DNA of 38,625 nucleotides. Origin: a virus. Its lineage: Duplodnaviria > Caudoviricetes. The DNA is taken from the IMG/VR virus record IMGVR_UViG_3300048998_000250, positions 1 through 38,625 of that record, one strand, 5' to 3'. Each line of letters opens with the position of its first letter. Within the stretch, counting starts at the first letter, position 1. Position numbers and translations under genes: made by a program. This document shows positions 4,428 through 38,625 of the stretch, in pieces. The notes beneath the pieces are model-generated. The model ran no database searches and was not told the origin of the DNA. It saw only the letters and a list, made by a program, of their open reading frames with translations.

Positions 4428-4892
4428 TTAGATGGTCCCCTCTGCGTCTGCTGGCGGAAGCTGCGCCGGGGCGGTGGGTGCTACAGCGGTCAGTGCCACC
4501 AGATTGACCGGACGGAGCCAAAGCGGGCCAAACCTCCCACGCGACGTCACGTTAGCAACCAGTTCGCGGACGAAAGGGAACATCATTCCGAGGGCGTGGC
4601 TCTTCACATACTCCGAAAGGGGAAAATTGGCGTCCTGCTCGGACTCAACCAGGGCGGTCATGAGGAATGAGAAACGATACAGCGGCTCGGCCTCCTCTTT
4701 GGAGCTGACCAGTATCTGGATTCGTCCCTTCGCCGCGTCGGGCGACAGCCCTGAACTGAGTTGCAACTCAATGTCGGTTTCAACCGGGGTCGCCGGATCA
4801 AACTCAAGGAAATCTGGCCTGTGCTCGAACATCGCACGCTCAAGAAAGATCTGGGCGATGCGAATTCCGGGTTGCTTGGTTGGGTCGATCAT
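4428..4892 (-). CDS. SecB-like chaperone (TAC system)
   Basis: GIRIAQIFLERAMFE and HALGMMFPFVRELVANVTSRGRFGPLWLRPVNL SecB-like signature; third gene of the operon. Confidence 0.9.
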   Translation of the reverse strand: MIDPTKQPGIRIAQIFLERAMFEHRPDFLEFDPATPVETDIELQLSSGLSPDAAKGRIQILVSSKEEAEPLYRFSFLMTALVESEQDANFPLSEYVKSHALGMMFPFVRELVANVTSRGRFGPLWLRPVNLVALTAVAPTAPAQLPPADAEGTI

Positions 4893-5573: not shown

Positions 5574-5914
5574 TGTGAACTCCCGTCAAGCTTGCAGGCC
5601 AGCAGATACAAGTCGTTTGGTCCGATGGCTACTTCCACGAAAAGCACGTCTGGCGGCTTTCCTTCCTCTTCGTGTGACCGCGGCAAGAAGCGCGTAACAA
5701 AAGTTCCGGTCGGGTTGTGAGGCGGCCAGTGGGACTCTTCCAGGTCCTTGTCCCAGCAAGTATCGGTCAGCTCGTACAGCATGTCCCACACGTCTGGTTC
5801 CTTGTAGCCGAGCCCATCCATCTGGGTTCGCGCCTTCCTGCTCACCTCCACTCGCTCTGCGTCAGCGAGTTCGTGGATACGCTGAAGCGCATCGTGCTTG
5901 GAGGGGAGGGGCAT
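5570..5914 (-). CDS. MqsR-like (RelE-fold) toxin
   Basis: LQRIHEL...SRKARTQMDGLGYKEPDVWDMLYEL pattern; upstream of and overlapping the antitoxin (ATGA). Confidence 0.75.
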   Translation of the reverse strand: MPLPSKHDALQRIHELADAERVEVSRKARTQMDGLGYKEPDVWDMLYELTDTCWDKDLEESHWPPHNPTGTFVTRFLPRSHEEEGKPPDVLFVEVAIGPNDLYLLACKLDGSSQ

Positions 5915-5945
5915 CTGCTCTGCTTGGCGGATACATGGGAGGCAG

Positions 5946-5975
5946 AAGGTAGCATGATGCTACTTTGGATTGCAA
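5946..5975 (-). promoter_or_regulatory. TAC promoter with palindromic operator
   Basis: TTGCAA-18-TACCTT on the minus strand; perfect palindrome GTAGCAT-G-ATGCTAC at 5949-5963 overlaps the -10. Confidence 0.65.
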
Positions 5976-6030
5976 GTATGGTTCCCGACCCCCATCAAAT
6001 ACACTGTTGAACCATTAAGTTCCGGTCTTT

Positions 6031-6060
6031 TTGACCGATGTAGCACGATGCTCCTAAGCT
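6031..6060 (+). promoter_or_regulatory. Distal promoter toward transposase containing second operator copy
   Basis: TTGACC-18-TAAGCT; the spacer holds GTAGCACGATGCTCC (6040-6054), 13/15 identical to the TAC operator. Confidence 0.55.
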
Positions 6061-6108
6061 ACCTACGCGGCACGACGTCGTTTGTAACAACCGGGTTATT
6101 TTTCGCAC

Positions 6109-6137
6109 TTGACGCAAGCCTTGCGTTAGGTTATAAT
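6109..6137 (+). promoter_or_regulatory. Transposase promoter, probably leaderless mRNA
   Basis: TTGACG-17-TATAAT ending 5 nt before ATG 6143; palindrome ACGCAAG-C-CTTGCGT at 6112-6126. Confidence 0.75.
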
Positions 6138-6142
6138 AATTC

Positions 6143-7204
6143 ATGGCCACCAAACAGCGGAAAGTCGGCGGGGCAACGACGGAATTGGAGCGCAAGCTGC
6201 CATTGGCCTGCGCCTCGGAGCCTCACGCCGTCGAGTTCATGGAGCACCAGCGCGGCTGGACTTCTGAGGCTGACGCGGCGTGCCCACAGTGCGGCGTGCT
6301 CGGGGAGTCATACCAAATGAAGAGCGCAACGGGCGAGCGCAACCCGCGCTTCTTGTGGCGCTGCCGTGCGTGCAAGCAGCAATTCACCGTGAAGGTTGGC
6401 ACCATCATGGAGGCTTCGCCAATCCCGGTCCGCTTCTGGTGCTTGGCGTTCTACCGCGCCGCTGCGTCCAAGAAGGGGATTAGCGCGATGCAGATGCAGC
6501 GCGAGACGGGCCTCTCCTACAAGTCCGCCCTGTTCATGATGCACCGTATCCGGTGGGCGATGAAGCCAGCCAACGACAACGAACCGAAGCTCGGGGCGAA
6601 CGGCGAGACGGTCGAGTTTGACGAGACCTACGTCGGCGGCAAGCCGCGCGGTCATGCACGCTATCAGACCAAGGCTGATGGGACGTACAAGGGCGGCCCC
6701 GCTGCCGATTTCTCGAAGAGGAAAACGCCGGTTGTCGGTGGCGTCGAGCGTGACGGTCGCGTGAAAGCGCGCGTGGTGATGAACGTCGGCGGTGCGGAGC
6801 TGGCGAAGCACGTGACGGCGATGGTGGACACGTCCGCGCATCTCATGACCGATCAGGCGCAAGCCTACAAGGCCATCGGGCTCGACTTCGCCAGCCACGC
6901 GCGCATTCGACACAACGTCGGCCAGTACGTGCGCTACACGACGGACGGCGTGCAGGTCACCACGAACCGCATTGAAGGCTTCTGGGCGGGCCTGAAACGG
7001 CAGATCGGCGGGACGCACCACGCCGTCACGCGGAAGCACCTGCACCGCTACCTGAGCGAAGCAGAGTTCAAGTACAACAATCGGGGCCTGAGCGACGGCG
7101 AGCGCACGGTAAAGCTGATCCAAGCGTCCGAAAATCGCCGTCTGACCTACGCGGAGCAGATCGCCCGCCCGCGTGACGACAAAGGGCGCTACACGTGGCG
7201 CTGA
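6143..7204 (+). CDS. IS1595-family DDE transposase
   Basis: Zn ribbon CPQC...CRAC; KKGISAMQMQRETGLSYKSA HTH; VEFDETYVGG, LMTD, TNRIEGFW, KHLHRYLSEAEFKYN. Confidence 0.97.
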   Translation: MATKQRKVGGATTELERKLPLACASEPHAVEFMEHQRGWTSEADAACPQCGVLGESYQMKSATGERNPRFLWRCRACKQQFTVKVGTIMEASPIPVRFWCLAFYRAAASKKGISAMQMQRETGLSYKSALFMMHRIRWAMKPANDNEPKLGANGETVEFDETYVGGKPRGHARYQTKADGTYKGGPAADFSKRKTPVVGGVERDGRVKARVVMNVGGAELAKHVTAMVDTSAHLMTDQAQAYKAIGLDFASHARIRHNVGQYVRYTTDGVQVTTNRIEGFWAGLKRQIGGTHHAVTRKHLHRYLSEAEFKYNNRGLSDGERTVKLIQASENRRLTYAEQIARPRDDKGRYTWR

Positions 7205-7221
7205 GATCGACGACGCCACAA

Positions 7222-7253
7222 ACACCCCCGCTCCCAATGGGTTGCGGGGGTGT
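7222..7253 (+). terminator. Hairpin after transposase
   Basis: ACACCCCCGC...GCGGGGGTGT. Confidence 0.55.
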
Positions 7254-7277
7254 CGCGGCGGGTGCTATAATTCAATC

Positions 7278-7497
7278 ACTATGGCGGGGGCATATCCGGC
7301 TCCGGCGTAGTGCGAGTGCGGGCGCGACCTGTCAGAAGCGGTCCCGTTCCTCGCGGTGGATTGGCTGGAGCGCTGGGGGAACGATCCCCACGGGGGAAGC
7401 CTGCCAAGGACTGCCCGGTCACCAGACGCGCCCCAAAAGTCATGCGAGCGGCCAGGGGTTGTTGTGCGCCTACACACCTCCCTCTGGCCGTTCGTGT
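7278..7497 (+). ncRNA. Putative small RNA (about 220 nt)
   Basis: Extended -10 TGCTATAAT at 7263-7271; no credible ORF; long terminal hairpin at 7442-7497 with G-U pairs that favour the + strand. Confidence 0.4.
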
Positions 7498-7500
7498 ATC

Positions 7501-8358
7501 CTACCGCTTGCCCTCCTGCTCCACGTTCGCCTTAGCGGCGAGCACTTGTGCAATCCCGCTCCAGAACGCGGTGATGCGGTCCGGTTGCCACGTGGCAAAG
7601 TCTTTCAGGTCGACGCTGACGTCCACGTTGAACCGCAGCACACCTTCTGGAGCCTGACTGAACGCCGTCGACAGCGACGAGCCGCGCACCGGTTCGCGCG
7701 GTTGTGCGATCCGGGGCTCCTCGTCGTCCGTGCGTTGCGTCGTCGTGTCAGAGCGCATCGGGGCCTCCTCCTGAATGACGGCACCGCCGTCTCGGTACGA
7801 GTCACCCTCTTTTCTGACGAGGCCGCTTTGTGTCAGATAGGACAAAATGTTCTTGAGTTGCCCCTCGTACCTCGGACCTGCACCGGATGCGTCGGCGAGC
7901 AGTTCAATCGCCTCGCGCTCTGTGATGGGCTTGCCCATGCGGAGCCTAGGCAGCAGGACATTGGCGAACCACGTCCTGCTCAGGAGCGGAGCCAGCTTCT
8001 GCGCTGCCGTCTCAGCGTTCCAGCCAATCGCCTTGACGTAGCTCATCACTTCCGGCGCTACCGCGTACCCGTTCCCCTCCTTCCGCAGAAACCCGACGTC
8101 GAGGAAGAAGGGATTAGCGAGAATCGCGGTATTGGGGTGGATCTTCACCAGCTCGGATACCTCGGTGTTCGTCACCGCCGTCTTGCCTTGCGACGTGATC
8201 GCGGCATAGCCCCGCAGCATGTCAAACTGCTTCGTCACGCCGACTCGGTCAGTGGGGAGTGCCTTGCTGGGCTTCTCGCTGACCGGCGGCTTCGCCGTTG
8301 TGTCGGAAGACGATTGCCCGTCGGGCGGAATCGTGCCGACGACTTTCGGACCTGTCAT
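7501..8358 (-). CDS. IS passenger hypothetical protein, probable tandem winged-helix (DUF5343-like, tentative)
   Basis: Two ...FLDVGFLRKEGNGY / YLTQSGLVRKEGDSY wing-like motifs; GGAGG RBS before ATG 8358; promoter TTGAGT(8418)-17-TAATGT(8395). Confidence 0.7.
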   Translation of the reverse strand: MTGPKVVGTIPPDGQSSSDTTAKPPVSEKPSKALPTDRVGVTKQFDMLRGYAAITSQGKTAVTNTEVSELVKIHPNTAILANPFFLDVGFLRKEGNGYAVAPEVMSYVKAIGWNAETAAQKLAPLLSRTWFANVLLPRLRMGKPITEREAIELLADASGAGPRYEGQLKNILSYLTQSGLVRKEGDSYRDGGAVIQEEAPMRSDTTTQRTDDEEPRIAQPREPVRGSSLSTAFSQAPEGVLRFNVDVSVDLKDFATWQPDRITAFWSGIAQVLAAKANVEQEGKR

Positions 8359-8465
8359 AGGAACCTCCATGTGTTGTGCGCCTGCCCACACATTAGCCAG
8401 TCAGGTCGTAGAACTCAAGTGCTCATGAGTAACCATGAGCCAGCGCGGGCCGGAGTGCCCACTTC

Positions 8466-8654
8466 ATGAGCCGTTCTGACCCAAGGTTGCCCAAACCGAC
8501 AAAGACGACCGGTTCGCCTAAGAAATCGCCCGGACGCCCTGCGGAGCCCCTGGTCATCCCCGGCAACTGGAAAGACGCCGTGAAGCAGGCGATGGCGAAG
8601 GGGAAGCCCCCGGCGAAGAAGGCCGCCACGAAGAAGCGGCGCCCCAAGAAATGA
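8466..8654 (+). CDS. Small basic protein at IS1595 right end
   Basis: 62 aa with PGRPAEPLVIPGNWKDAVKQAM core; inverted repeat GCTCATG-N6-CATGAGC upstream (8421-8440). Confidence 0.55.
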   Translation: MSRSDPRLPKPTKTTGSPKKSPGRPAEPLVIPGNWKDAVKQAMAKGKPPAKKAATKKRRPKK

Positions 8655-8710
8655 GCGCCGCCAGCCCGTTACCCCCGGGAGGGCGAATGTGCGCCAAGTA
8701 CATACTTCCC

Positions 8711-8749
8711 GTTGCTTCCGTCGATGAAGACAATGGCTCGGTCGCGCAT
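8711..8749 (-). pseudogene. NYN nuclease 5' fragment (MRDRAIVFIDGSN)
   Basis: Joins in frame to WYHSL at 4116 once the element and one TSD copy are removed. Confidence 0.92.
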
Positions 8750-8761
8750 GGCGGGATCACC

Positions 8762-8876
8762 AAAAGAAAAACCCCGGTGTGTGGCTGAGAGCCAGACACC
8801 GGGGGGGTAAATCCTTGAGCGCCCGTGAGCACTCAAGGTCGTGCAAAGAAAGTATCGGCAAGCGTTCTGAAAGCAA
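8762..8876 (-). promoter_or_regulatory. NYN leader: promoter, hairpin and terminator-like hairpin
   Basis: TTGCTT-16-TACTTT; hairpin at 8813-8838; CCCCGGTGT...ACACCGGGG followed by UUUUUCUUUU just before the ATG. Confidence 0.6.
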
Positions 8877-8920
8877 TACCCAGACCACCTATTCGGGGTT
8901 CCTTCGGCTGTGGGCCACTT

Positions 8921-9037
8921 CTAGAGGAGGGCAACGACCTCTTCCAGCTTCCAGACGTGATCCGCGACGCCTGCCGCCATTGCCGGGGTCCGCTTGATCC
9001 CGCCCGCTGCTGTGGTGAGCGTCTTGTGCGCGCGGCC
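8921..9037 (-). pseudogene. IS1-family transposase C-terminal remnant
   Basis: GRAHKTL...RTPAMAAGVADHVWKLEEVVALL* is characteristic of the C-terminus of long IS1-family transposases. Confidence 0.8.
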
Positions 9038-9235
9038 TGCACACTCGCCCTGAATGCAGAATCCACCGCCCGGCACGGGAAGAAATGGACGGCGAAGGCA
9101 GCGGCCGAGCGGGCAAAGAATCGAATCCACTGCAAACGCGGACACCACCTGACGCCGGAGAACACCGCGACCACCAAGCGCGGGCGAAGATTCTGCCTCA
9201 CTTGCCGCGCGAGCAGGCGGTTGCTGGTGGCCTAG
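9038..9235 (+). pseudogene. Phage HNH-endonuclease-type C-terminal zinc-finger remnant
   Basis: HCKRGHHLTPENT...GRRFCLTCR motif; no start codon or HNH core remains. Confidence 0.65.
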
Positions 9236-11804: not shown

Positions 11805-12479
11805 TCAGAAGCTCCGCTGCACGAGGACGTAGAAGCGGGGCCTCTCCCCGAGCGCCACCCGCTGTTCCCCCCGCGCGCCGAGCGCCCACGGGCCCGCCAC
11901 GCGCACGGTGACGTCCACCGCGATCGCAGAGACATGGGCCATGGGGTCGTAGAGGAGGGACAGTGCGCCCCCGAGCCGAGGACGGTGCTCGAGCCGCGTG
12001 ATGAGCGTGTCCTGCTCGCGCGTCGTCACCTGCCGGTCATGGTCCAGCGAGTCCGCCCGCTGCCGCTCCGCGCCTGCGGCGAGCGCGAAGTGCAGCGCGG
12101 CGTGCCGGAGACTGTCTGCGGCCGCCACCAACGCGGGGAGTCGCGCGATGTCGTGCGCCGTGTCGGCGGCCGTGAGGGGGTGCAGCACGAGCGTCGGGCG
12201 CACGGCATCGTAGCGCGCCACGGCCCGATGTAGCGTGCCCGCCTGCTGGTCGGTGACGAGCCTCGCGGTCCCGAGCCGGGCCGAGTCCTGCGCACTCGCC
12301 GCTTTGGACTGGGCGATGACGCGAACGAGCCGGCGCACCTCCACGTCGTGCGTCTGCTGACGATGGAGCACGAGGGCCGCGAGGGCACAGGCGCCCAACG
12401 CCACGCCGACCAGCAAGACGAAGTGCGCGAGGCCGGGCACGCGCGCGAGCGCGGGGCGAGGGTCAGGGAGCATGGCCAC
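11805..12479 (-). CDS. Spanin candidate: N-terminal TM, coiled coil, C-terminal beta strands
   Basis: TM FVLLVGVALGACALAALVL; helical middle; ends ...RFYVLVQRSF; follows the endolysin. Confidence 0.65.
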   Translation of the reverse strand: MAMLPDPRPALARVPGLAHFVLLVGVALGACALAALVLHRQQTHDVEVRRLVRVIAQSKAASAQDSARLGTARLVTDQQAGTLHRAVARYDAVRPTLVLHPLTAADTAHDIARLPALVAAADSLRHAALHFALAAGAERQRADSLDHDRQVTTREQDTLITRLEHRPRLGGALSLLYDPMAHVSAIAVDVTVRVAGPWALGARGEQRVALGERPRFYVLVQRSF

Positions 12480-12702
12480 CCCTCAGCATGAACCGCCGCC
12501 ACCATGCGCGGCGCGGAGCGATCGGGCTGACCGGCAGGCGCTCGACGGCGCTGGGCCACTCGCTCGCCGGGGTGAGGTGTGCGTCGTCCGCGGGCATGGG
12601 CTCGTCCGGCTCGGGGCAGTCGCCGGGGCGCTCCAGCGCGCGGAGGCGGAACAAGAGTTCCTTCGCTTCGGCGAGCCGGTCGCCGTACTCGGGACGCTGC
12701 AT
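12463..12702 (-). CDS. Small hypothetical protein in lysis cassette
   Basis: GAGGTGG RBS; MQRPEYGDRLAEAKELLFRL...RRAWWRRF. Confidence 0.55.
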   Translation of the reverse strand: MQRPEYGDRLAEAKELLFRLRALERPGDCPEPDEPMPADDAHLTPASEWPSAVERLPVSPIAPRRAWWRRFMLRGGHAP

Positions 12703-12716
12703 GGCGGCCACCTCAT

Positions 12717-13160
12717 CTACTGTGGGAGGCGAACGAAAACTTTGTCGTCTGCTGAGACGGGGTGTTCGTAGACGCCATCGCCATTGGACGACGCGCCCGT
12801 TGCACTGGTATTCCCCGCGATGGTCGTGAGCGGGGCGGTCGCGGTGACGATGGCCACGTGATGCGCGTGGCCCGTCGCGGTGACGGAGAAACACAGATCG
12901 TCCACCGCAGGCCCGCGCACGACCCACCCCTGCGCGCGGCAGTAGTCGAGCTTCGTCTGACACGAGCCGGTGCGCGGGCTCTGGGTGTGGCCGTGGTACG
13001 CGATCGCTTCGACGACGGAGGCGAAATCCGCGCACCAGGAGTCACCGACGACGCCATCGCAAAACCGCTGGAAAAACTCGACAAACGCGCCCGCGTTGGG
13101 GCCGTCCGTCTCGCGCACGAAGTCGAACCGCCGGGCGACGGCGGAGAGGGAGGCGGGCAT
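12717..13160 (-). CDS. CHAP-domain endolysin
   Basis: VRETDGPNAG, SWCADFAS (catalytic Cys), HHVAIV (His), TIAGNTS; TGATG coupling to the holin. Confidence 0.85.
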   Translation of the reverse strand: MPASLSAVARRFDFVRETDGPNAGAFVEFFQRFCDGVVGDSWCADFASVVEAIAYHGHTQSPRTGSCQTKLDYCRAQGWVVRGPAVDDLCFSVTATGHAHHVAIVTATAPLTTIAGNTSATGASSNGDGVYEHPVSADDKVFVRLPQ

Positions 13161-13432
13161 CACATCCCGTCCTTCGGCGCGGCTGGGTCGCTGGCGCGTC
13201 GGCCGCCCACGATCGGCAAGTTCGTGGTCCCGAGCGAGACGAAGAGCTGCGTGAGCGCCACGGGCGCGCCCGAGCTCGGGATGAGATAGGCCCCGAACAG
13301 GGCGACCCCGATCCCGGTCAGCAGGAACACGAGCGACGGGGCCACGCCGTGCACCGCGGGGATGAGCGCGAGCCCCGTCACCACGAGACCCACGACGAGG
13401 AACAGGACACCGAGGATCGTCTGGCGCGTCAT
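13160..13432 (-). CDS. Holin
   Basis: 90 aa, at least two TM segments, charged C-terminus, immediately upstream of the endolysin. Confidence 0.7.
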   Translation of the reverse strand: MTRQTILGVLFLVVGLVVTGLALIPAVHGVAPSLVFLLTGIGVALFGAYLIPSSGAPVALTQLFVSLGTTNLPIVGGRRASDPAAPKDGM

Positions 13433-13611
13433 GCTGACCGCGGCGAGAAACCGTCGCGTTCAGGCGACGGAGGAAGAGCCGGTCCGATGTCAACGCGGCG
13501 CAGAACATCGCGGCCCGGGGTGCCGTAATGCACCCACAGGTGTCGGAAAAGTCGGCTGCTGTTGCCGCCTGAGTACAGGCACGAAGCCGTCTGCTTCAGT
13601 TGACGGTCCAT
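13429..13611 (-). CDS. 60-aa ORF translationally coupled on both sides
   Basis: TAATG overlap upstream and ATGA overlap downstream; MDRQLKQTASCLYSGG... Confidence 0.4.
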   Translation of the reverse strand: MDRQLKQTASCLYSGGNSSRLFRHLWVHYGTPGRDVLRRVDIGPALPPSPERDGFSPRSA

Positions 13612-14171
13612 TACGGGAGGTCTCCTTTGCGGCGGCGGGACGGGTGCGGCGCGCGGCGCTCTGGCGCGGTGAGATCGGGCGCGTCGCGCCCGCGGAGGAA
13701 GCCCACGACGTCGGCGATGGCGGTGGCGTTGGCGACCGCCTCGTCGTGCACCTTCTCGACGGCGGTGCGGATCTCGGAGAGGGCCGATGTCGTGGCGGTC
13801 GCGGAGTGCTGCATCGCGGCCGTCTGCGCTTCGATCGCCCGCGTGATCGTGTCGGTGAGCGCCTTGCCCTGCGCCTGGATCGCGGCGTCCAGATATTCCA
13901 GCCGGTCCTCGTGGACCCTCACCAGGTCGATCGCCGCGTCGCGGGCCGTGATGTCGTCGGCGAAAATCTCCTCCACGGCTTTCTTCACGTCCGGGCCGCA
14001 GTCGGAGAGGTGCGAGCGCCAGATGGCGCGGGAGACCGCTTTGCCGATAAACAGGCCCGTCGCAGCGATGATCCCGACGCAGATCGTGGCGACCTTCCCG
14101 GCAAGCGCCCACGCGCTCGCGTCGGGCAGCGTCGGCGCGGCGGCGGATTGCAGGAGCGTCAGGATCGACAT
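13611..14171 (-). CDS. Single-TM coiled-coil protein (holin/antiholin-like)
   Basis: TM KVATICVGIIAATGLFIG followed by heptad helices; first gene of the lysis cassette. Confidence 0.65.
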   Translation of the reverse strand: MSILTLLQSAAAPTLPDASAWALAGKVATICVGIIAATGLFIGKAVSRAIWRSHLSDCGPDVKKAVEEIFADDITARDAAIDLVRVHEDRLEYLDAAIQAQGKALTDTITRAIEAQTAAMQHSATATTSALSEIRTAVEKVHDEAVANATAIADVVGFLRGRDAPDLTAPERRAPHPSRRRKGDLP

Positions 14172-14209
14172 CGGATGGCGGGGAGCAGAGGCCACGGGGA
14201 ACGTCCCTA

Positions 14210-14310
14210 GGAAACGCAGACGGCACCCGCCAACCCCGAAGGGTCGTTGGGTGCCGAGATCAAGCGGCGACAAGATTGTGCGCCCCCGAAGGGGCTGTGA
14301 CTGCAGTGTA
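14210..14310 (-). ncRNA. Leader/attenuator element copy B (before lysis cassette)
   Basis: TACACT -10, small hairpin, ACAATCTT, GCCGCTTGATCTCGGC, terminator stem CGGCACCC...GGGTGCCG then TCTGCGTTTCC; homologous to 36380-36494. Confidence 0.7.
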
Positions 14311-14336
14311 CTACGGGGGCCGGAGCCGGGAAAGCA

Positions 14337-14687
14337 TCAGTGCGGGGACTCGCCGTGCCAGGCGTGCACGAGCAGCGGGGGCCCGTGGCCGCCCTGATTG
14401 CCACGGAGCTGCGCCTGCACGTCGGCCGGGAGCCGGGCGTGGCGCTCCCGGAGCGAGCCCTCCGAGAGGACCGTGCCCGGCGACGGCACGCCCACGACGG
14501 ACCACGCGAGCGTGTCCGGGTCGCGGCGCTGCTGGTCGGCGCAGGAGTAGAGGTCGCCGGTGAGATGGGCGATGTCCATGTTGAGCAGCTCCTGCGCCGT
14601 CGCGGGGCGCACCGTGCCGTCCAGGTCGCGCACGGTGGGCAGCTCGCTCGGGGCGATCCGCCTCACGCTATAGGCAATCGAGTGCAT
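14337..14687 (-). CDS. Hypothetical phage protein
   Basis: 116-aa ORF with GGAG RBS in the tail operon. Confidence 0.65.
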   Translation of the reverse strand: MHSIAYSVRRIAPSELPTVRDLDGTVRPATAQELLNMDIAHLTGDLYSCADQQRRDPDTLAWSVVGVPSPGTVLSEGSLRERHARLPADVQAQLRGNQGGHGPPLLVHAWHGESPH

Positions 14688-22738: not shown

Positions 22739-23896
22739 TCAGGCGCTCCGCATCGCGGCCATGGTCTGCACGCCGCGGAGCGTCTTCAGGGCGGCGAGGC
22801 CGACGAACCCGCCGAACGCGCCACCGACCGACCCGGCCCAGAGCGTCGTGTCACTCCATGCCGTGGCGAGGGCGTTGCCTGCCGACTGCGCGCCGAGCGT
22901 CTCTGCGGCGCTATTGATGGACTGGCCGATCTGCACGGACCCGTCGGCGCGGAGCACCGCACGCAGCTCGACGAGATCCCCGATGGACGGCGCGACCGCG
23001 AGCGACGAGGAGACCACCGCGACGTTGTTGTTGTGCTGCGCTTGGTAGACCCCGCCCCCGGCGTAGAGGATGCACGCCGGGGCGGTGTTCCCGGACGCGC
23101 CGATCTGCGCGAGCCGCGCCCCGTTGGTCGTCAGGATCGTCCCCCGCTCGTAGCATCGGGCGTACAGCGTCAACTCCATCGGCGCATACGGGAACGGCAG
23201 CGACACCACGTCCGCGCTCCGCGTCGCCGCCGCCGCGGTCGTCGCGACGTAGGACGAGGCGAAGGACGCGTTCAGCTCCGACTGGCCGCCCCAGAGCGAG
23301 ACCGTTTTGCCGGCGCCCGTGTAGCTGCTCACGTCGGTCGCGCCCGCGCTGTTGTCGTGCGGGCCGAGGATCGGCGAGTAGGTCGTCAGCGTGCCATGCG
23401 AGCCGGTCGCTTCGATCCGGGACCAGCCGTTCGCCAGCGCCGTGACGGCGGAGCGGAGCAGCGTCCAGCCGGCCGCCGCGTAGGTCTGCGTGATCGTGCC
23501 CGTCTGGAGGTCGACGATCACGACCCAGCCGCCCCCGTTGCTCACGCCCACGCGCACGTAGCGCTGCGTGCCGGCCTTGGCATACACCGTGACGGCCGTG
23601 GGCTGCCCGGCGACCACGGGCAGCGTCTGGAAGGCGCGGTTCACCGTCCCCGCGCCCCCTTCCGTGAGCGTCGCACTGGTGAGCGTGCCATCGGGCGCGA
23701 GCGACTGGTTGTCCGCCGCCGCGAGTCCCGCGTCCTTCGACCACGCGGCATTCGTGAACGCCTGCGACCAGAGGAGCGCATTCGTGCGCGCGCCTTCGAG
23801 CAACACCGCGCGCTCGTAGAGGCCCGTCGTGGCGTTTCGCTCGTAGTGGGAATCGCGCGGGACGTTGACCGCAGCGGTTGTGAGTTGGAGGGCCAT
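22739..23896 (-). CDS. Fibre/spike-type structural protein
   Basis: AVNVPR...LLEGARTNALLWSQAFTNAAW...ASSYVATTAAAATRSAD motifs. Confidence 0.8.
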   Translation of the reverse strand: MALQLTTAAVNVPRDSHYERNATTGLYERAVLLEGARTNALLWSQAFTNAAWSKDAGLAAADNQSLAPDGTLTSATLTEGGAGTVNRAFQTLPVVAGQPTAVTVYAKAGTQRYVRVGVSNGGGWVVIVDLQTGTITQTYAAAGWTLLRSAVTALANGWSRIEATGSHGTLTTYSPILGPHDNSAGATDVSSYTGAGKTVSLWGGQSELNASFASSYVATTAAAATRSADVVSLPFPYAPMELTLYARCYERGTILTTNGARLAQIGASGNTAPACILYAGGGVYQAQHNNNVAVVSSSLAVAPSIGDLVELRAVLRADGSVQIGQSINSAAETLGAQSAGNALATAWSDTTLWAGSVGGAFGGFVGLAALKTLRGVQTMAAMRSA

Positions 23897-28453: not shown

Positions 28454-28656
28454 AGGTCAGCTCCTTCGGCGTGGGAATACGGGGCCGGATCGGTATCCGC
28501 CGCGGCGATGGGCAGGGCGGCGGGCACCGGCGGAGCGGTCTGCGCGGCGACGTACTGCTCGACCGCGGCCCCGCCCTCGGCTTCGATGGACTGCGGGATG
28601 GCGACGCCGTCGACGGTGAGGCCGCTCGGCACGGGGTCGTTCGACGGAGGAGTCAT
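28450..28656 (-). CDS. Small hypothetical protein
   Basis: 68 aa; ATGA overlap with the tail tube gene. Confidence 0.6.
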   Translation of the reverse strand: MTPPSNDPVPSGLTVDGVAIPQSIEAEGGAAVEQYVAAQTAPPVPAALPIAAADTDPAPYSHAEGADL

Positions 28657-28712
28657 GGGTGACGTGGGTGACGTGGGTGACGTGGGTGACGTGGGTGACG
28701 TGGGTTACGTGG
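28656..28712. repeat. 9-bp tandem repeat TGGGTGACG x5 plus variant TGGGTTACG
   Basis: Directly visible; fills the intergenic space. Confidence 0.95.
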
Positions 28713-31242: not shown

Positions 31243-33915
31243 TTACCGGGCCGCGATGGTGACGAATGGGGACAGCGTGTTCACGCCGTTCTTCGGGGTG
31301 AGCGGGACGTTCCACACGGGCTGGCCATCCACCCGATACGTGATGCGGAACGTCATCTCGTCGTTCAGGAACCGGACGTGGAGCGACTGGGCCTGCTGGG
31401 CGCCCCCCTTGTCGATCACCAGGTACTGCGACAGATCGGCGAGCGTGATGTCGCCCGGAGTGCCCAGCGTCGCGGCGTATTCGATCGGCACGATCGGCCG
31501 GCCGAGCAGCGTGCCGTAGGGCGCCACCGCGAACCCACCCTGCGGGGGCAGGTAGACGGGCCAGTTGCCCAGCTGGAGCTGCAACAGCTGCGGCAGCACG
31601 TCCTGGTTGATGAACCACACGGCGTTCATCAGCGACCGCGCCCAGAGCCGGGCGTACACCTTCGTGATGTTCTGCACGTTCACGGTCGCCGCGGCCTGCG
31701 CCCCTTCCTTCGCGACCTGGAGGATTGCGCCCGACTGGAAAATCCCCAGCGGCTGACCGTTGCCGGTGCCGTTCAGGATGGCATCCTCCGTCATGAACGT
31801 CACTTCCTCGGAGAACGCTTCCTGCGCCACCGCGCCCATCGCGGTGGTGTCCTGCATCAGTTCGTCGGTCAGGTACCAGACCGCGAACAGCTTGCGGAGC
31901 TCGAGCTGCATCTGGCGCAGCTTGGGCTTCTTCGCGGCCACCGTGTCCGCCTCGCTCGCCCAGTACGCCTGGATGCCGCCGTAGCGGGACCCGGTTGCGC
32001 GGCTCGTCTCGTCCACCGCGTTGATCTTGAGCCCGTTCGCCTGCTCGGAGATCGGGATCGTCCGGACGCGACTCAGGATCTGGCCCGTCTGATACGAGCG
32101 CTTCAGGATCTCCGTGGAGAAATCCGTCTGGATGGCGAACCCGCCGTCGGAGGGCGTGGCCTCGCCCATGCCCGACGCGGCCGCCTGGAGCGACTGCACG
32201 TGCAGCAGGCGCTTGTCCATGGCGTGCGGATTCCGGGTGGACTTGACGATCGCCTGCAACTGATCGCCGAACGACGCGAACGGCTTCTCCGCCTCGCGAT
32301 CCGCCCCGACGCGAATCGGCGGTGACGCACTCGCGAGCTGGCGCTTGATGCTGAGGATGTGCGCGGCGGCGGCGTTCATGTCGCCGCCCGCCTTGGCGAC
32401 GACGTCGGCCTGGTGCGTGGCCTCGAGGCCATGCTCGCCGGCCAGCGCGCGGATCTGGGCGTTCACTTGCTCACGCTTTTCGAGCGCGGCCTCGACCGCC
32501 GCGGCGATCGCTGCGGCCCCAGGCTGGGCCGCCGTGTTTGCTTCGGGCATACTCTGCTCCATGGCCAAGGGCCGGTTGAGTGCGGGGGACCGGGTGTGCG
32601 TGACGGCGCCCCCGCCCGCCGTCACGGTGAACGCGCCCGCGAGCCCGGCACGGGGCCGGCTCCGTCGGGTGTCAGCCTTCGCGCGGCGCGCCTTCCGGCC
32701 CTTCCGCGCCGTGGTGTCCTCGGTGTCGTCATCCGCGTCCGGATCGCCGGTGATCTCTTCGTCGGCGCTGGCGTCGGCCGGATCGTCCTCGACCTCGTCA
32801 TCGTCAGAGTCGTCGGCGCTGGCGACGAAGTCCTCGTCGTCCTGTTCGAGATCCTCCTCCTCCTCGTCGTCCGGATCGTCGTCGGTGGTGTCGTCGGCGC
32901 GCCGCGTCCCCGCCGCCAGCCCGAAGCCGAGCGCCAGGAGGTCCGCCGTCAGCCCTCCCTCGAGCGCGGCCTGCACCGTGTCGCGTCCAGCCGACGCGGC
33001 GAGACGGGCCGCCGCGCGACGCGGCGTCTGGGCTTCTGCGCGACGGGCCTTGCCATTCATTCCGGCGGAGGGCGCTCCGAGGTCGGCCAGCACCTGCTCC
33101 AACGTGGCGACGCGATCGGCCAGCCCTTCGGCTACGGCCTGGCGCGCCGGGAGCACGCGGCCCTCTCCGAACCCGTTGGTGACGGCGCTCGCCTTCACGT
33201 CGCGCCCTGCGGCGACGGCGGCGACGAACATGTTGTAGAACTCGTCAACCATCGCCTGCTCGGCCGCGCGCGCCGCATCGGAGAGCGGCTCGTAGCTATT
33301 GCCCTCGGTCTTGAACTTCCCGGCGGAGATCAGCGTGCGCTTGATCCCGGCCCGTTCGTCCGCCGCCGACTCGTCGGTGTGGCAGGTGAACACGCCGATC
33401 GAGCCGATCAGGCTGGACGGACTGGCGACGATCTCGTCCGCCTGCGCGCAGATCCAATACGCGGCGCTCGCCATCAGAGCGTTGGCGACCGCGACGATCG
33501 GCTTGCCCTTGCCACGCGCGGCCCGAACCCGCGCGGCCAGTTCCGCGACCCCGGAGACCGACCCACCGGGGGAATCGCAGTCGATCACGATGGCGCCCAC
33601 TTCCGCGTTCGCCATCGCGGCATCGAAGCTCGCCGCGAATTGGTCGGTCGATGTCCCGCCGGAATACTCCGACACGACATTTGCGCGCTGGCAGACCACA
33701 CCATAGAGCGGGAGCACGGCGATCTTGCCGCCCACCGTCGGGGCGCGCGTGGCCGTGCTCCGCGCGTTCATGACGGCACGGATCTCCGCATCACTCTTGG
33801 CGACGCCGGAGGCCCGCAGTTCGAGCATATCGAGGATCGCGTGCAATTTCTCCGGCACGATCGCCCAGGCGGTCGACTGGACGGCGCGCATGACGCCGGG
33901 GATTCGGGTGCGCAT
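31243..33915 (-). CDS. S49 prohead protease fused to scaffold and HK97-fold major capsid protein
   Basis: DSPGGSVSG, MASAAYWI, GSIGV, AGKFK (S49); acidic linker; SDGGFAIQTDF...EDAILNGTGNGQPLGI...TLLGRPI (MCP). Confidence 0.92.
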   Translation of the reverse strand: MRTRIPGVMRAVQSTAWAIVPEKLHAILDMLELRASGVAKSDAEIRAVMNARSTATRAPTVGGKIAVLPLYGVVCQRANVVSEYSGGTSTDQFAASFDAAMANAEVGAIVIDCDSPGGSVSGVAELAARVRAARGKGKPIVAVANALMASAAYWICAQADEIVASPSSLIGSIGVFTCHTDESAADERAGIKRTLISAGKFKTEGNSYEPLSDAARAAEQAMVDEFYNMFVAAVAAGRDVKASAVTNGFGEGRVLPARQAVAEGLADRVATLEQVLADLGAPSAGMNGKARRAEAQTPRRAAARLAASAGRDTVQAALEGGLTADLLALGFGLAAGTRRADDTTDDDPDDEEEEDLEQDDEDFVASADDSDDDEVEDDPADASADEEITGDPDADDDTEDTTARKGRKARRAKADTRRSRPRAGLAGAFTVTAGGGAVTHTRSPALNRPLAMEQSMPEANTAAQPGAAAIAAAVEAALEKREQVNAQIRALAGEHGLEATHQADVVAKAGGDMNAAAAHILSIKRQLASASPPIRVGADREAEKPFASFGDQLQAIVKSTRNPHAMDKRLLHVQSLQAAASGMGEATPSDGGFAIQTDFSTEILKRSYQTGQILSRVRTIPISEQANGLKINAVDETSRATGSRYGGIQAYWASEADTVAAKKPKLRQMQLELRKLFAVWYLTDELMQDTTAMGAVAQEAFSEEVTFMTEDAILNGTGNGQPLGIFQSGAILQVAKEGAQAAATVNVQNITKVYARLWARSLMNAVWFINQDVLPQLLQLQLGNWPVYLPPQGGFAVAPYGTLLGRPIVPIEYAATLGTPGDITLADLSQYLVIDKGGAQQAQSLHVRFLNDEMTFRITYRVDGQPVWNVPLTPKNGVNTLSPFVTIAAR

Positions 33916-33916
33916 C

Positions 33917-35539
33917 CTACTCTCCTGTGCCGGTGGCCACGGCGCGCAACCGTGGGCGCGCCGTGGTCGAGGTGGGGTGGCCATCGCTCGTCGCTCGGAG
34001 CAGCCGCTCGTAGCGCGCGTAGAACACTTTCGTGCTGATCTCGCCGGTCACGAGGCGCCGGAACAGCGCGCGCACGCGGCGCGGCGCGGGGCTGGCCGCC
34101 TTCGTATTGCCCGCGCTCGTCTGGTCGCCCGTGACATCCACGCCCGCCGTGCCGGAGACGTCGATCTCGTGCGCCAGCTCGTCGATGATCTCCTCCCAGT
34201 CGCGCCCCTGCTCACCGGCCAGCCGGGTGCGCGAGTCGAGGCCGAGATCGATCGCGAGCTTCGCCGCGATGAGGTCGTCCTTGGGGTTCACCCACTTCCA
34301 GCCCCGGGGGCGCCACTTCACGTCGCGGTAGTCGGAGGAGAGGCGGCTGTCGACGGCGAGGCTGCCGGCGAGCAAGGCGTTTGGGAGCCACGCGTCGTAC
34401 ACGTCGCCATGGCAATGCTCGATGAGCCAGCGCTGGAGCGTGCGGTACCAATCGCGCTCGGAGAGCAGCCCGGCGCGGATCGAGGAGTAGTTGACCGCCT
34501 CCAGGTCGCCGGTCAGCGTCGTGTAGGCCATATTGAGCCCGCGGGCGACGCCGCGGAGTACGGCCTTCGTGAAATCCTTGAAGGCGATCGACGGGTGCTT
34601 CGGGTCGAACAGTTGCATCTCCTGCCCCGGCGCCAGCTCCTCGAACGAGCCGGGCGCGGCATCGGACAGCCGCGCCGTCTCCCCGTCGCCCGAGGCGTCA
34701 TACGCTTCGATCGCCTCGGGCGTCTTGTTGACGATGAACCCCATCTTCGCCGCCGCCGTCCGCGCGGCGACCAGCTCGGCTTCGGTGTAGCCGTCGAGCA
34801 TCTTGAGGTTGAGCAGCGCGGGCGCGAACCAGGTCACCCCACGCGTCTGCTGCCCGCGATACTGCACGAACAGGTGGATGATCTCCTCGGCCGGCACGCG
34901 CACGCGCTGCCGCGGCCCCATGTCGGAGATTTGCCGCGACCAGATGTGGTAGGCGATCGGGGCCCCGTACTCGTCGATCTCCACGCCGTTCCGCACCTCG
35001 TGCTGCCCGGGGCTCGGCCCGACGAGATAGAATTCGTCGACCTGATCGGCGTCGATGAACTGGAGGGCGAACGCGTGCGGATTGCCGAAATAGCGGATCT
35101 TGCGGAAAAAACACTCGCCGTCCATCGCCACGGTGCGGACCGCGAGCCGCTGGAGATCGCGCCAACTCGTGCGGCGATCAACGCTTGCGTGCTGCGGACG
35201 CCCCCAGTCGAGCCACGCGCGCTCGATCGCCTGGTTCGTCGTCTTGGACTTCTTCCCGTCGCCGGTCGAGACGTGGGCTTCGAGCAGGATGCCGTCCGGG
35301 CCGACCACGTTGCTGGCCAGCTCGTTGAGAAAACCGGATGCGTGCGGATTGTCGCGAACGAGCATGCGCGCCCGCGCGCGCATGACGCGACCCGCCATGC
35401 GGATCTCGACGTCCGGCGAGTAGATGCCCGCCTGAAAATCCTGATAGAGCCGCGAGCCCGTCGCGCCGCCGAACACCGCGCGACGGTCCACGCGTGGCGC
35501 GTCCATCATCCGGGCGGCGGCCCGGAAGGCGTTACCCAC
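33917..35539 (-). CDS. Portal protein, lambda family
   Basis: RARARMLVRDNP, GVEIDEYGAPIAYH, TGDLEAVNYSSIRAGL, WVNPKDD. Confidence 0.95.
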   Translation of the reverse strand: MGNAFRAAARMMDAPRVDRRAVFGGATGSRLYQDFQAGIYSPDVEIRMAGRVMRARARMLVRDNPHASGFLNELASNVVGPDGILLEAHVSTGDGKKSKTTNQAIERAWLDWGRPQHASVDRRTSWRDLQRLAVRTVAMDGECFFRKIRYFGNPHAFALQFIDADQVDEFYLVGPSPGQHEVRNGVEIDEYGAPIAYHIWSRQISDMGPRQRVRVPAEEIIHLFVQYRGQQTRGVTWFAPALLNLKMLDGYTEAELVAARTAAAKMGFIVNKTPEAIEAYDASGDGETARLSDAAPGSFEELAPGQEMQLFDPKHPSIAFKDFTKAVLRGVARGLNMAYTTLTGDLEAVNYSSIRAGLLSERDWYRTLQRWLIEHCHGDVYDAWLPNALLAGSLAVDSRLSSDYRDVKWRPRGWKWVNPKDDLIAAKLAIDLGLDSRTRLAGEQGRDWEEIIDELAHEIDVSGTAGVDVTGDQTSAGNTKAASPAPRRVRALFRRLVTGEISTKVFYARYERLLRATSDGHPTSTTARPRLRAVATGTGE

Positions 35540-35810
35540 GACGCCGCTCCAGGTCGTTCAGCTTGTAGAGCCCGTAGCGCGCGACGTTGGCGAGCCAGCC
35601 CCAGCCTGCGAGCGAGAGGCAGAAGAGCCCCGCCGAGAGCGACCAGACCGGCCCACGCTGGGCCACCTGCGCGATGGCGTGCGTGACGAGCCCCCACCCG
35701 GCGAGCACGGCGAACGACTGCGCCAACTCCGCGCGCGCGACGAGGAGGGCACGACCGAGGCGCCGCACCTGGCGCACGACCGGCACGTCCATGACGTCAG
35801 CGGGTCGCAC
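35532..35810 (-). CDS. Small two-TM membrane protein
   Basis: Hydrophobic segments; lies between the gpW-like gene and the portal. Confidence 0.6.
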   Translation of the reverse strand: MRPADVMDVPVVRQVRRLGRALLVARAELAQSFAVLAGWGLVTHAIAQVAQRGPVWSLSAGLFCLSLAGWGWLANVARYGLYKLNDLERRRG

Positions 35811-36369
35811 TGAACACCACCGTGCGCTGCGGGGCCGCGAGGGTGGGATGCCGCTGGCGCCAGACCTCGTGGCGATAGCGGGCGCGGAGACGCATCAACT
35901 GCCGCGTCTCGATCTTGCCGACCGACTTCCCGTCGATCTGGTAGTGCTCCATGTCGGCGGGGAGCCGCTTCTCGATCGCAGCCTCGATCAGCGCGAGCGC
36001 GCGGTCGGCATGCGTCTGCGAGGCGACCGGCGTGGTCGTGAGCGGGTTCGCATCAATCACCACGACGGCGTCGTAGATCGTATGCGTCTCGCCGCTCAGC
36101 GAGACTTGCCCCACCAGTCGGAAGGTGCCGTCCGCGTTGATCGCGGCGGTGTCGGCAGGGGCGAAGGCGACGAGCCAGCCACCGCCTTGCACCGCCCCCG
36201 TCACCGTCTTGTCGACGAGCGGCGTCGCGGCGGTCCCGACCGGCCCGAAGAGCCGGTACTTCAGGACCCAGCCGTCGAGCGCCGAGAAGTCACCAAGTCC
36301 TTTGGTGAACTGCACGGTATCGCCAGCAACAATCGTCGTCGGTTCGCCGACCGGGATCTGAGGTGCCAA
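35797..36369 (-). CDS. gpW-like head completion protein with N-terminal Ig-like domain
   Basis: LALIEAAI...HYQIDGKSV...QLMRLRARY; position between terminase and portal. Confidence 0.8.
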   Translation of the reverse strand: MAPQIPVGEPTTIVAGDTVQFTKGLGDFSALDGWVLKYRLFGPVGTAATPLVDKTVTGAVQGGGWLVAFAPADTAAINADGTFRLVGQVSLSGETHTIYDAVVVIDANPLTTTPVASQTHADRALALIEAAIEKRLPADMEHYQIDGKSVGKIETRQLMRLRARYRHEVWRQRHPTLAAPQRTVVFSATR

Positions 36370-36379
36370 CCGGGCTCCT

Positions 36380-36518
36380 GGAAACGGAAAACGGCGCCCA
36401 CTGACCCCCCCCGAGAGGGATCGTTGAGCGCCGAGGTCACGCGGCAGTAAGATTGTCGGGGCCAGCCCTGAGGGCGGCCTGTGCGGTCAGTGTAGCACTA
36501 GGCTGCGGGATCTGTCAA
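36380..36518 (-). ncRNA. Promoter plus leader/attenuator element copy A (before head genes)
   Basis: TTGACA-18-(TGc)TACACT, hairpin, ACAATCTT, GCCGCGTGACCTCGGC, terminator CGGCGCTC...GGGCGCCG then TTTTCCGTTTCC. Confidence 0.75.
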
Positions 36519-36552
36519 CGCCTTCGCGGAAGCGCGTCTGGCACCCGCTCAC

Positions 36553-38502
36553 TCACCAGTTGTTCACCCAGCCCGCACGGCGCGGCTTTGGCGGGGAGTA
36601 GACTGACGCGGGCTCGGGCGGGGGCGCGACGGGTTTGGTCGCGCGGAGTGCCGCGCCCTGCTCGCGGAGTTTCTCGGCGCGACGACCGAGCCCTTTGATC
36701 GCCGTCTCGCCAAGCGAATGCAGCGCGGCCAGCGCGTACACCTCAAGGTCAAGGGCTTCGTTGCGGTCACGGGTCGGCACCCACCGTCGTGACCACCCGC
36801 CCTGTGGATCACGCCGCGCGATCTTCTGCTCGCTTGTGAGCTGCGCGAAATACTCCGCGTCGCACCAAGGCGCGACCGGGAAATGCATGTAGCCGGGCCC
36901 CGGGAGCGGCTTCCTGAGCCGGCTCCCGAGAATCAGGTCCTTCGCCGTGTCCGGGCCGACCTCATACACCTTGACCCGGTGCTTGCCGACCCGCGCTGGC
37001 TTGGTGGGCCAGAGCGGTTTCCCCTGCTCCTTCGCGCCGCGGATCGCGTACACCTGGCGCCCCGCATGCGCCCGCACGAATCGGGCGACGTTGTCGGAGT
37101 AGTGGCCGCCATAGTCGATCACTGTCACGGTGGCCCGGAGCAGCACGCCCGACTCGTGGATCCACTCGCGCTCGAGCAACGCGTCGAGCCGCGCCCACAC
37201 GTTGTCGGGTGCGGCGGCGTCGCCCGGATCACCGAGCAGCCGCTCAAGATGAATCAGCCAGCTCTCCTCCTGCTCGCCGTATCCCTTCACGGCCACCTCG
37301 AGCCGATCGCCTTGCACGTCGACCGACACGACGAGGAGCGCGGCCCCCATTGGCACTTCGGCCTGATACTCCTCGCGCCGGTCGTAGAGCGTGTCCCCGT
37401 TGACCCGCTCGCCTTTCTCCTCGAAGGTCTCGGCGAGGCGCGTATTGACGAACACTTGGAGGAGGTCTCGCTCGCCCTTGGCCGCGACGAACTCGTCGGC
37501 CAGTTCGGCGAGCGAGACGAATGGAGAGATCAGCGCCGGGATGTGGAATCCGGCGGGCTTCGTCTCACCGACACCGGGAGGTGCCATCGCGAGCCACCGG
37601 CCAGCCCGGATCATGCGCTGCCGCGCGCTCTCCGTGATGACGCATCCGTTCGGCTGGCACACGTAGTACGCGGTCTCGGGCTTGTGGACCTTGGTGTCCC
37701 CCTCGCCGGTTTTCTCCCACTGCACGCCTTTCCACACGAGCACCTGCTCGGCCCCGCAGTGAGGGCAGGGGCAATGCCAGCGCCGTTGGTCACTCCGTTC
37801 GTATTCACGCTCGATGTTGCTGAATTTCTTGAGCGTGGGCGTCGAGCCTTTGATGAGCTTCCGGTTCCAGAACGTCGTCGCGCGCTTCTCACCCAGCTTG
37901 ATCGGATTGCCCTCTTTTCCCGACGAGGGGGGAAAGCCGTCGATCTCGTCAAAGATGACGACGCGCCGCGGGCGCGCCCGAAGCCCGGCCGGGGCGTTCG
38001 CCCCGACGATCCCGAGATGGCCGCCGGGGTATGCCTTGCTGAGGATCGTCGTATCGCTGTTCCGCGTCCGCGCGTCCTTGATGCTGGCCCGGAGCACCGG
38101 CGTGTCGCGCAACATGGGCGAGAGTTTTTCCTTACTCCATTTCTCGGCCTCTTCGACGGAGATGTGCACCACAAGAATAGGGGCCGGGTCCTGATGGATG
38201 TGGTAGCCGACGAGGTTGTTGACGACGCCATCCGTGAAGGCGACCTGCACGCCCTTCATGACGACCGTCTCGCGAATCCGCCGGTCCGTGCAGGTGTCCA
38301 TCACCTCGCGGAGATAGGGCACCACGTCGGTCCGGAACCGCCCGGGCGACGCGGAATTCTCACGTGAGAGCATCCGATACCGGTCCGCCCATTCCGAGAG
38401 GGTCAGGGTCGGGGGCGGCGCCAAGATCGTCCGGCACATCTGCGATCGTCGGCGCCGCCACGCCTGTCGCGCGGACGCGTGCGTGCTATGCCGCGCCAAC
38501 AC
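36553..38502 (-). CDS. Terminase large subunit, lambda GpA family
   Basis: LSEWAD, MKGVQVAFT, VIFDEID, STPT, CPCPHC, VDVQGDRLE, RNEALD. Confidence 0.97.
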   Translation of the reverse strand: MLARHSTHASARQAWRRRRSQMCRTILAPPPTLTLSEWADRYRMLSRENSASPGRFRTDVVPYLREVMDTCTDRRIRETVVMKGVQVAFTDGVVNNLVGYHIHQDPAPILVVHISVEEAEKWSKEKLSPMLRDTPVLRASIKDARTRNSDTTILSKAYPGGHLGIVGANAPAGLRARPRRVVIFDEIDGFPPSSGKEGNPIKLGEKRATTFWNRKLIKGSTPTLKKFSNIEREYERSDQRRWHCPCPHCGAEQVLVWKGVQWEKTGEGDTKVHKPETAYYVCQPNGCVITESARQRMIRAGRWLAMAPPGVGETKPAGFHIPALISPFVSLAELADEFVAAKGERDLLQVFVNTRLAETFEEKGERVNGDTLYDRREEYQAEVPMGAALLVVSVDVQGDRLEVAVKGYGEQEESWLIHLERLLGDPGDAAAPDNVWARLDALLEREWIHESGVLLRATVTVIDYGGHYSDNVARFVRAHAGRQVYAIRGAKEQGKPLWPTKPARVGKHRVKVYEVGPDTAKDLILGSRLRKPLPGPGYMHFPVAPWCDAEYFAQLTSEQKIARRDPQGGWSRRWVPTRDRNEALDLEVYALAALHSLGETAIKGLGRRAEKLREQGAALRATKPVAPPPEPASVYSPPKPRRAGWVNNW

Positions 38503-38625
38503 CGGGCTCCTCCTCCGACTCCTCGTCGAGCTCTGGGTCCTCGCCGGCTTCGGAGAGTGCCTGAAGCAGTTCTGTCGACAACCGTTCGAGGACGACCAGC
38601 GCGGACGCTGGATCGGTGGTCTCAG
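38486..38625 (-). CDS. Terminase small subunit C-terminus (partial)
   Basis: ...ALVVLERLSTELLQALSEAGEDPELDEESEEEPGVGAA* overlapping the large-subunit start. Confidence 0.65.
   Translation of the reverse strand, partial: ETTDPASALVVLERLSTELLQALSEAGEDPELDEESEEEPGVGAA

Follow-up and report, generated by a model that had tools for sequence, protein, structure and literature searches.

Two related, structured leader RNAs precede the late operons of an uncultured soil phage: copy A stands ahead of the head genes and copy B ahead of lysis-type genes. Both are confirmed as real, duplicated, structured late leaders. We lean towards reading them as RAT-like antiterminators, in which a protein would stabilise a small hairpin built on a new RNA motif. 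The logic of such a gate is most likely the RAT-like one that is already known, and the RNA motif itself uncatalogued.

The window analysed here is the whole 38,625-nt stretch, an entire 38.6-kb virus record from a soil metagenome whose genome is estimated to be 63% complete; the contig lacks the small terminase as well as the replication and late-control region. Run X1, which may be the source sample, has a public assembly that is identical over 34664-38625 and 14100-14450. The minus strand carries lambda-like head genes (large terminase, head-tail joining, portal, protease-capsid), followed by tail and endolysin matches. Copy A occupies the 183-nt gap between the terminase and the head-tail gene, the terminase stop lying 35 nt upstream of the copy A -35 box, and copy B occupies the 141-nt gap ahead of the lysis-type genes.

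36553..38502, minus strand: large terminase (phrog_15, E 2.6e-242)
36518-36375, minus strand: leader copy A, between the large terminase and the head-tail/portal/capsid genes (sequence)
35797..36369, minus strand: head-tail joining gene, the first gene downstream of copy A (phrog_5774, E 2.9e-23)
31243..35539, minus strand: portal, then protease-major capsid gene, downstream of copy A (phrog_21, phrog_53, phrog_10)
14337..14687, minus strand: conserved 116-aa gene abutting promoter B (five homologues at 50-75%)
14333-14204, minus strand: leader copy B, ahead of the lysis-type genes (sequence)
11805..14195, minus strand: lysis-type genes downstream of copy B (family match and translations)

The endolysin match falls in ORF 12717-13508 (phrog_9589, E 1.2e-08), and candidate holin and spanin roles within 11805..14195 come from hydrophobic stretches and position only. 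Immediately ahead of a small tail-region gene, positions 28643-28712 hold a nine-base tandem repeat. The left end of the window, read from its ORFs, looks like an immunity-like, lambdoid-looking region. There, a divergent control region with a TTGACA promoter box (2150-2240) is flanked by a repressor-like gene (plus strand, 2225-2920) and by a Phd-family small gene at the expected cro position (minus strand, 1881-2087). Another nine-base tandem repeat (28-360, minus strand; 108-nt unit in 26 overlapping copies) encodes the Ala/Trp/Arg/Asp-rich repeat of the early gene 2-754. A cassette of three at 4428-5914 (minus strand), made up of an unannotated small ORF, an MqsA-family antitoxin and a SecB-like chaperone, resembles a toxin-antitoxin-chaperone defence module. 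An IS1595-family transposase lies downstream of a near-consensus promoter (6109-7204, plus strand), and the stretch of about 3500-9200 seems to contain leftovers of another IS copy, together with an NYN-domain gene whose two parts flank the insertion region.

The motifs named in the first-pass annotation are all present on the minus strand where it had placed them, and its second leader, copy B, is likewise confirmed. The anatomy and positions of the two leaders are read directly from the DNA, whereas their start sites are predictions. Copy A is built as follows.

36513..36518, minus strand: -35 box TTGACA (sequence and promoter scan)
36489..36494, minus strand: -10 box TACACT with TG upstream (sequence and promoter scan; spacing from -10 to ACAG equal to that in copy B)
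36460..36479, minus strand: 5' hairpin P1 (fold prediction)
36449..36456, minus strand: conserved box ACAAUCUU (ACAATCTT at 36456-49), identical to copy B at 8/8 positions
36430..36445, minus strand: mini-hairpin GCCG-CGUGACCU-CGGC, the predicted antiterminator, 14/16 identical to copy B
36392..36433, minus strand: long stem with AAC internal loop and upper hairpin, the predicted terminator (fold prediction)
36375..36391, minus strand: pyrimidine tail TTTTCCGTTTCC and AGGAG ribosome site (sequence)

Transcription of copy A is predicted from its sequence to start at 36482 (ACAG). Its promoter, described earlier as a strong sigma70-type promoter, matches the consensus at 10/12 positions, with TTGACA, an 18-nt spacer and an extended -10 (TG-TACACT), but the scan found one such site in the window against 0.8 expected in shuffles, so that its support comes from its position and its match to copy B. 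The CGGC is common to the mini-hairpin and the long stem; taken by itself, the mini-hairpin has a predicted energy of -4.1 kcal/mol. The AGGAG ribosome site (36379-75) is followed by a TTG start codon at 36369. Copy B has the same parts.

14305..14333, minus strand: promoter candidate (sequence)
14282..14295, minus strand: 5' hairpin P1 with a C(UUCG)G loop (fold prediction)
14253..14279, minus strand: box ACAAUCUU and mini-hairpin GCCG-CUUGAUCU-CGGC (sequence and fold)
14204..14256, minus strand: long stem, tail and AGGGA ribosome site (sequence, fold and survey)

Here TACACT (14310-05) is preceded by a weak TTTCCC (14333-28) and no clear -35 box; the promoter scan did not call this promoter, and the start is predicted from sequence at 14298. 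The long stem runs from 14256 to 14221, its upper hairpin again closed by a C(UUCG)G loop, and the tail reads UCUGCGUUUC. The order common to both copies is TACACT, six bases, ACAG, P1, ACAAUCUU, three bases, GCCG-CNUGANCU-CGGC, four bases, AAC, the upper hairpin, GGGYGCCG, the pyrimidine tail and the ribosome site. P1 differs between the copies in sequence and length, and so does the upper hairpin in length.

A joint motif pattern occurs twice in the window and in none of 100 shuffles; since the copies themselves supplied this pattern, blastn and the rank among 144 controls are the fairer tests of whether the resemblance exceeds chance. With copy A masked, blastn of leader A against the window returns copy B at E 7e-6 and its next match at E 0.56. 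The A-B local alignment score of 43 exceeds the best of 144 control stretches by a narrow margin (41). A motif-blind survey that lists 31 minus-strand hairpin-plus-U-tail sites ranks copy A first (-27.6 kcal/mol) and copy B second (-26.9 kcal/mol). The unpaired motifs are conserved, in agreement with the first-pass annotation: the copies agree at 8/8 positions of the box, 14/16 of the mini-hairpin and 12/16 between the -10 box and +4, compared with 0/3 linker positions and, near background, 8/24 between -35 and -11. GCCG, CGGC and GCCG are invariant in A and B, whereas the pairs next to them and the two outer hairpins differ. Three patches, seen directly in the two copies, together contain about 20 unpaired bases that are conserved.

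Both leaders are predicted to choose between two folds. Counting the intended helices only, the long stem is favoured over the competing fold by 4-5 kcal/mol, with -27.5 against -23.2 kcal/mol in copy A (gap 4.3) and -23.8 against -18.6 kcal/mol in copy B (gap 5.2). The mini-hairpin and the long stem share 4 nt in both copies, an overlap visible in the bases themselves, and the proposal that the mini-hairpin uses the terminator's 5' CGGC holds accordingly for both: the predicted folds are mutually exclusive. In the growing transcript of copy A the mini-hairpin is predicted to form first and to be displaced once the 3' arm emerges. Pre-forming is predicted at a P of about 0.9 in A and 0.1-0.2 in B, where the box and GCCG are predicted to pair with the non-conserved P1 in competition with the mini-hairpin.

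The 13 pairs of the long stem are kept throughout (26/26 cells paired across A and B), the changes being one two-sided and three one-sided (wobble). The compensatory change reported for the stem therefore stands, but as a single two-sided change and with none in the mini-hairpin, whose four pairs do not vary between the copies and are thus unproven by covariation. A shuffle control on stem pairing (264/500) is uninformative with only two rows, and slid registers pair at 35-54%, the structure having been derived from the same sequences. Both copies have stable stems followed by interrupted U-rich tails, with U at 7/10 tail positions in A and 5/10 in B. The intrinsic terminator said to end the leader is accordingly a prediction, favoured by the strong stems and weakened by the interrupted tails and by the consensus terminator scan, which called neither copy. 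In the survey, nothing resembling a terminator separates the leaders from the genes upstream of them, so the gates would act on read-through RNA too. Readings of the element as a packaging site or a DNA operator were rejected: the mini-hairpin is symmetric only in its outer four bases, and the third GCCG completes the competing stem.

Could the leaders work without any switch? They may be an old duplicated promoter-terminator cassette whose stem attenuates, pauses or stabilises the RNA, with an incidental mini-hairpin. The presence of two copies only, the similarity score barely above controls (43 against 41), the missing covariation of the mini-hairpin and its low predicted occupancy in copy B all fit this account. 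We nevertheless consider it unlikely: conservation is higher in the unpaired bases of box and loop than in the linker and the promoter spacer, and essential genes placed behind a strong promoter and an unregulated stop would need a bypass.

According to the RAT-like reading, polymerase would by default stop at the long stem, ahead of the head genes and of the lysis genes. A factor, probably a phage protein, would bind the mini-hairpin and so keep CGGC from the 3' GCCG of the stem. In the resulting open fold the upper stem would survive, displaced by four bases from the U-tail, and termination would be abolished. Recognition would involve the CNUGANCU loop, ACAAUCUU and the AAC internal loop. 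Termination, as well as the existence of the factor, its protein nature and the bases it recognises, is what we infer from this arrangement; a phage protein is favoured, since two developmental operons would stand under a single motif and their promoter DNA is unshared (8/24). Points against the RAT-like reading are that there are two full copies only and that the mini-hairpin bases are possibly conserved as sequence, along with the low predicted pre-forming in B, the interrupted tails passed over by the terminator scan and the absence of a factor gene from the contig.

In RAT systems a small hairpin in the leader shares bases with the 5' arm of an intrinsic terminator, which wins unless a protein holds the hairpin; the RAT described in the available text of the sources is about 30 nt long, with two conserved internal loops, a variable apical loop and, in licS, an 8-nt overlap (PMC5393181, PMC12591593). 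The word 'phage' does not occur in the main text of the antiterminator review among these (PMC12591593). As in the RAT of the BglG/SacY/LicT (CAT-domain) antiterminators, the mini-hairpin of both copies overlaps the 5' arm of the terminator, here by 4 nt. Unlike the RAT, it is 16 nt long, with 4 pairs, no internal loop and a conserved 8-nt apical loop. The leaders further differ from RAT/CAT systems in their upstream box, their phage late-operon context and the lack of a CAT gene in the contig. ANTAR elements, as far as described in the portion of PMC8934654 consulted, consist of two hairpins, the second overlapping the terminator, with hexaloops that carry A1 and G4. Copies A and B also have two hairpins, of which the second overlaps the terminator, but their loops are 3-4 nt (P1) and 8 nt (second hairpin) rather than dual hexaloops.

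The phage systems offered in the first-pass annotation vary in how well they fit. Its late-gene antitermination element finds its best match in the RAT-like logic, together with the default long-stem fold and the late-operon position, whereas nut-like and put-like elements fit poorly. In lambda, the N-responsive nut site consists of a single-stranded box and then a small GC-closed hairpin. The A and B leaders likewise have a single-stranded box and then a small GC-closed hairpin, but by eye neither the boxA nor the boxB consensus is matched. Nut and HK022 put both act at a distance, and the A/B hairpin instead shares bases with the terminator. An RNA that acts on polymerase without a factor, as put does alone according to the available part of PMC8191782, which also deals with EAR and conAn, would be consistent with two hairpins before a terminator. 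We consider this very improbable, as P1 is unconserved, the second hairpin is absorbed into the terminator and a factor-free element at a consensus promoter would give no timing.

The late promoter, short leader, terminator and late genes, with a -10-like hexamer in the leader, also recall the lambdoid Q system at pR'-tR', in which Q loads through DNA and paused polymerase. The conserved box can be read as a -10-like xACAAT hexamer; GACAAT and CACAAT retain A2 and T6 of the -10 box in the two copies. The long stem would then be a plain late terminator and the hexamer a pause element for loading a protein onto polymerase. The lambdoid late layout and the lambdoid-looking immunity region of this phage speak for such Q-type control, as do pauses that arise from repeated -10 sequence, reported in the accessible text of PMC5001585. 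It is unlikely all the same, because the promoter DNA from -35 to -11 is unshared (8/24), though a short Q-binding site or one further upstream may be common to both, the distance from hexamer to start differs between A and B, the invariant mini-hairpin is left unexplained and PF06530 (Q) has no match in the 63%-complete contig. The conserved part of A and B is, unlike a Q site, transcribed and in competition with the terminator, the promoter spacer is unconserved, and there are two separate gates.

The same hexamer could instead be the -10 element of an activator-dependent nested promoter that starts at the G of GCCG, which lies 7 nt past the hexamer in both copies; in some distant relatives xACAAT stands just before the start codon. 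The DNA upstream of the hexamer, which differs between the copies and resembles an RNA hairpin (with a UUCG loop in B), tells against this. Alternatively, stem and tail may tune ribosome loading, but the ribosome sites lie 12 nt past the long stem and are left unpaired by it. We regard both versions together as improbable.

The factor presumed by the RAT-like reading was sought in the 63%-complete contig. PF03123 (CAT) gave 0/1 for the phage's own record, its control matching in 4/14, and PF03861 (ANTAR) had no match in the contig, its control matching nowhere; nor did PF10055 (DUF2292) or Mor have a match. Together with the Q search, these results agree with the earlier statement that the window contains no identifiable trans factor, and a factor gene would most likely lie in the missing part of the genome. 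The 116-aa gene abutting promoter B belongs to a family of 103-193-aa forms with both ends common and a variable middle. It has no Pfam, PHROG or NCBIfam match. Its model (pLDDT 78, about 90 residues confidently folded) yielded no Foldseek match, a best Z of 2.9 and no usable Atlas match, and as a candidate factor the modelled protein has no support either way.

The novelty suggested for the element withstands a scan of Rfam 15, in which no family matched even at permissive E-values: at the gathering threshold there are no matches in the window, a single chance match near copy A has E 9, and around copy B and a further leader, L259, there are none at E<=1. A covariance model (R2), proposed earlier as a means of scanning phage loci, was built and scores its own copies at 101-105 bits, but no full homologue was found with it. 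It detects no third copy in the window and none in 58 loci or 29 whole records; five more records gave only E of at least 0.1. A strict pattern retrieved no loci from IMG/VR. Looser patterns retrieved 41, 42 and 68 loci, all judged chance or coding, with a best model score of 21.7 bits, and among the 41/68 loci of the last pattern that the model scored none fell below E 0.09. Searching the leaders against cultured phages and plasmids by blastn gave short chance matches only, and 301 genomes of one phylum contained no close head-tail gene. The DUF2292-linked hairpin, present in 4/5 DUF2292 loci from 4 genomes, differs from that of A and B: it has an inner stem and a four-base loop where A and B have an 8-nt loop. 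Model R2 scores 0/5 of these loci.

In the literature covered, with subscription papers mostly outside that coverage, we found neither this motif nor a RAT-like gate for the late operons of a phage described. The part of PMC10690425 available lists 10,006 candidate viral RNAs; the leaders match none of the candidates in three of its six supplements.

Two observations are leads toward a wider family. The first is a 151-nt contig of depth 2 from a second soil run (X2), which spans the whole long stem of copy B. By hand reading, four inserted letters lengthen its upper hairpin in register, taking it unbroken from 6 pairs to 8; three substitutions are unplaced, and the alignment shown excludes the mini-hairpin part. 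Diverged terminase pieces also occur in run X2. The second is L259, which was selected by pattern; among 46 other pattern cores it alone passed a filter for a full stem and a U-rich tail.

L259:1975-2080 (G302:C1 about 23715-23820): leader ahead of another phage's protease-capsid gene

L259 has CUCGGC-N4-AACGA, GCCG, a tail and a ribosome site in common with A and B, and a competing hairpin with a different loop (-29.7 against -34.4 kcal/mol). It is without the box and the UGA loop, is unscored by the model and matches neither Rfam nor DUF2292. In its 44-kb record it is present as a single copy and ties for the strongest hairpin-plus-tail site. It may be an analogue rather than a relative.

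Over-long gene calls offer a further lead only. In the distant head-tail homologues P0018, P0027, P0072, P0116 and P0135 the N-terminal extensions finish with peptides rich in Phe, Cys and Val, which is what a terminator tail ahead of the ribosome site would encode if those phages also had one. Reading such calls back into codons gave no significant result in any single-motif test. End-anchored alignments gave a weak signal in 3/6 proteins over 12 uncorrected tests (P0007 against A, 1/120; P0135 against A, 0/60, and against B, 2/60; P0018 against B, 2/60). A pattern built from P0018 found nothing.

The conserved unpaired bases would also suit an ON riboswitch, the ligand-sensing alternative of the first-pass annotation, with a compact two-helix pocket for a host metabolite or ion built from the box, the 8-nt loop and the AAC internal loop. 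The three patches of about 20 such bases and the switch-sized energy gap are compatible with it. We give it little credence, since no Rfam family matches even at permissive E-values, inspection found no conserved pairing between the unpaired patches, and a developmental protein would suit the gating of head and lysis genes better. If it were true, the leaders would form a new class, through which a temperate phage senses a host small molecule to license head assembly and lysis, and L259 would be a distant member.

Relatives put the position of copy A into context. Closer head-tail homologues exist as seven proteins at 52-65% identity, whereas scans with the head-tail protein reached distant relatives only (13 + 38 viral loci, 1 genome locus and 12 metagenome loci) and a terminase scan reached 2 loci at 43%. 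We analysed 43/52 distant-homologue loci, excluding 9 as weak, duplicate or truncated, which left 36 distinct upstream regions. The A/B motif is absent from all 36. A different box, of the type GACATT-N-TTGCCTA-N-AATGTC, is found in 22/36 (in L059, L063, L065-L067, L082-L085, L088, L139 and others), at a distance of about 20-60 nt from the head-tail gene downstream and with a start codon close behind it. From its sequence it is probably an activator site of an activator-dependent late promoter; a weak Mor match, below the cut-off, lies near it in 1/5 records tested. In two cultured phages the junction is only 3 and 27 nt long. Loci L068 and L071-L073 carry a terminator-like stem and U-tail 50-100 nt before the head-tail gene, its upper part having two alternative pairings, possibly a different gate at the same junction. 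Placement after rather than before the terminase had been pointed out as a feature of the element, but the 22/36 regions with their own conserved box show that it is not peculiar: control downstream of the terminase is ordinary in this lineage, and it is the device that differs.

To our knowledge, the late-gene switches described so far act via DNA and polymerase, through Q-type loading, promoter activators or sigma factors. If the RAT-like reading is true, a RAT-type RNA gate on every late operon would depart from these described solutions, and the presence of another box at this junction in most relatives would mean that late-control modules are being swapped. At about 110 nt the leader is small and would provide a handle for finding a new RNA-binding protein.
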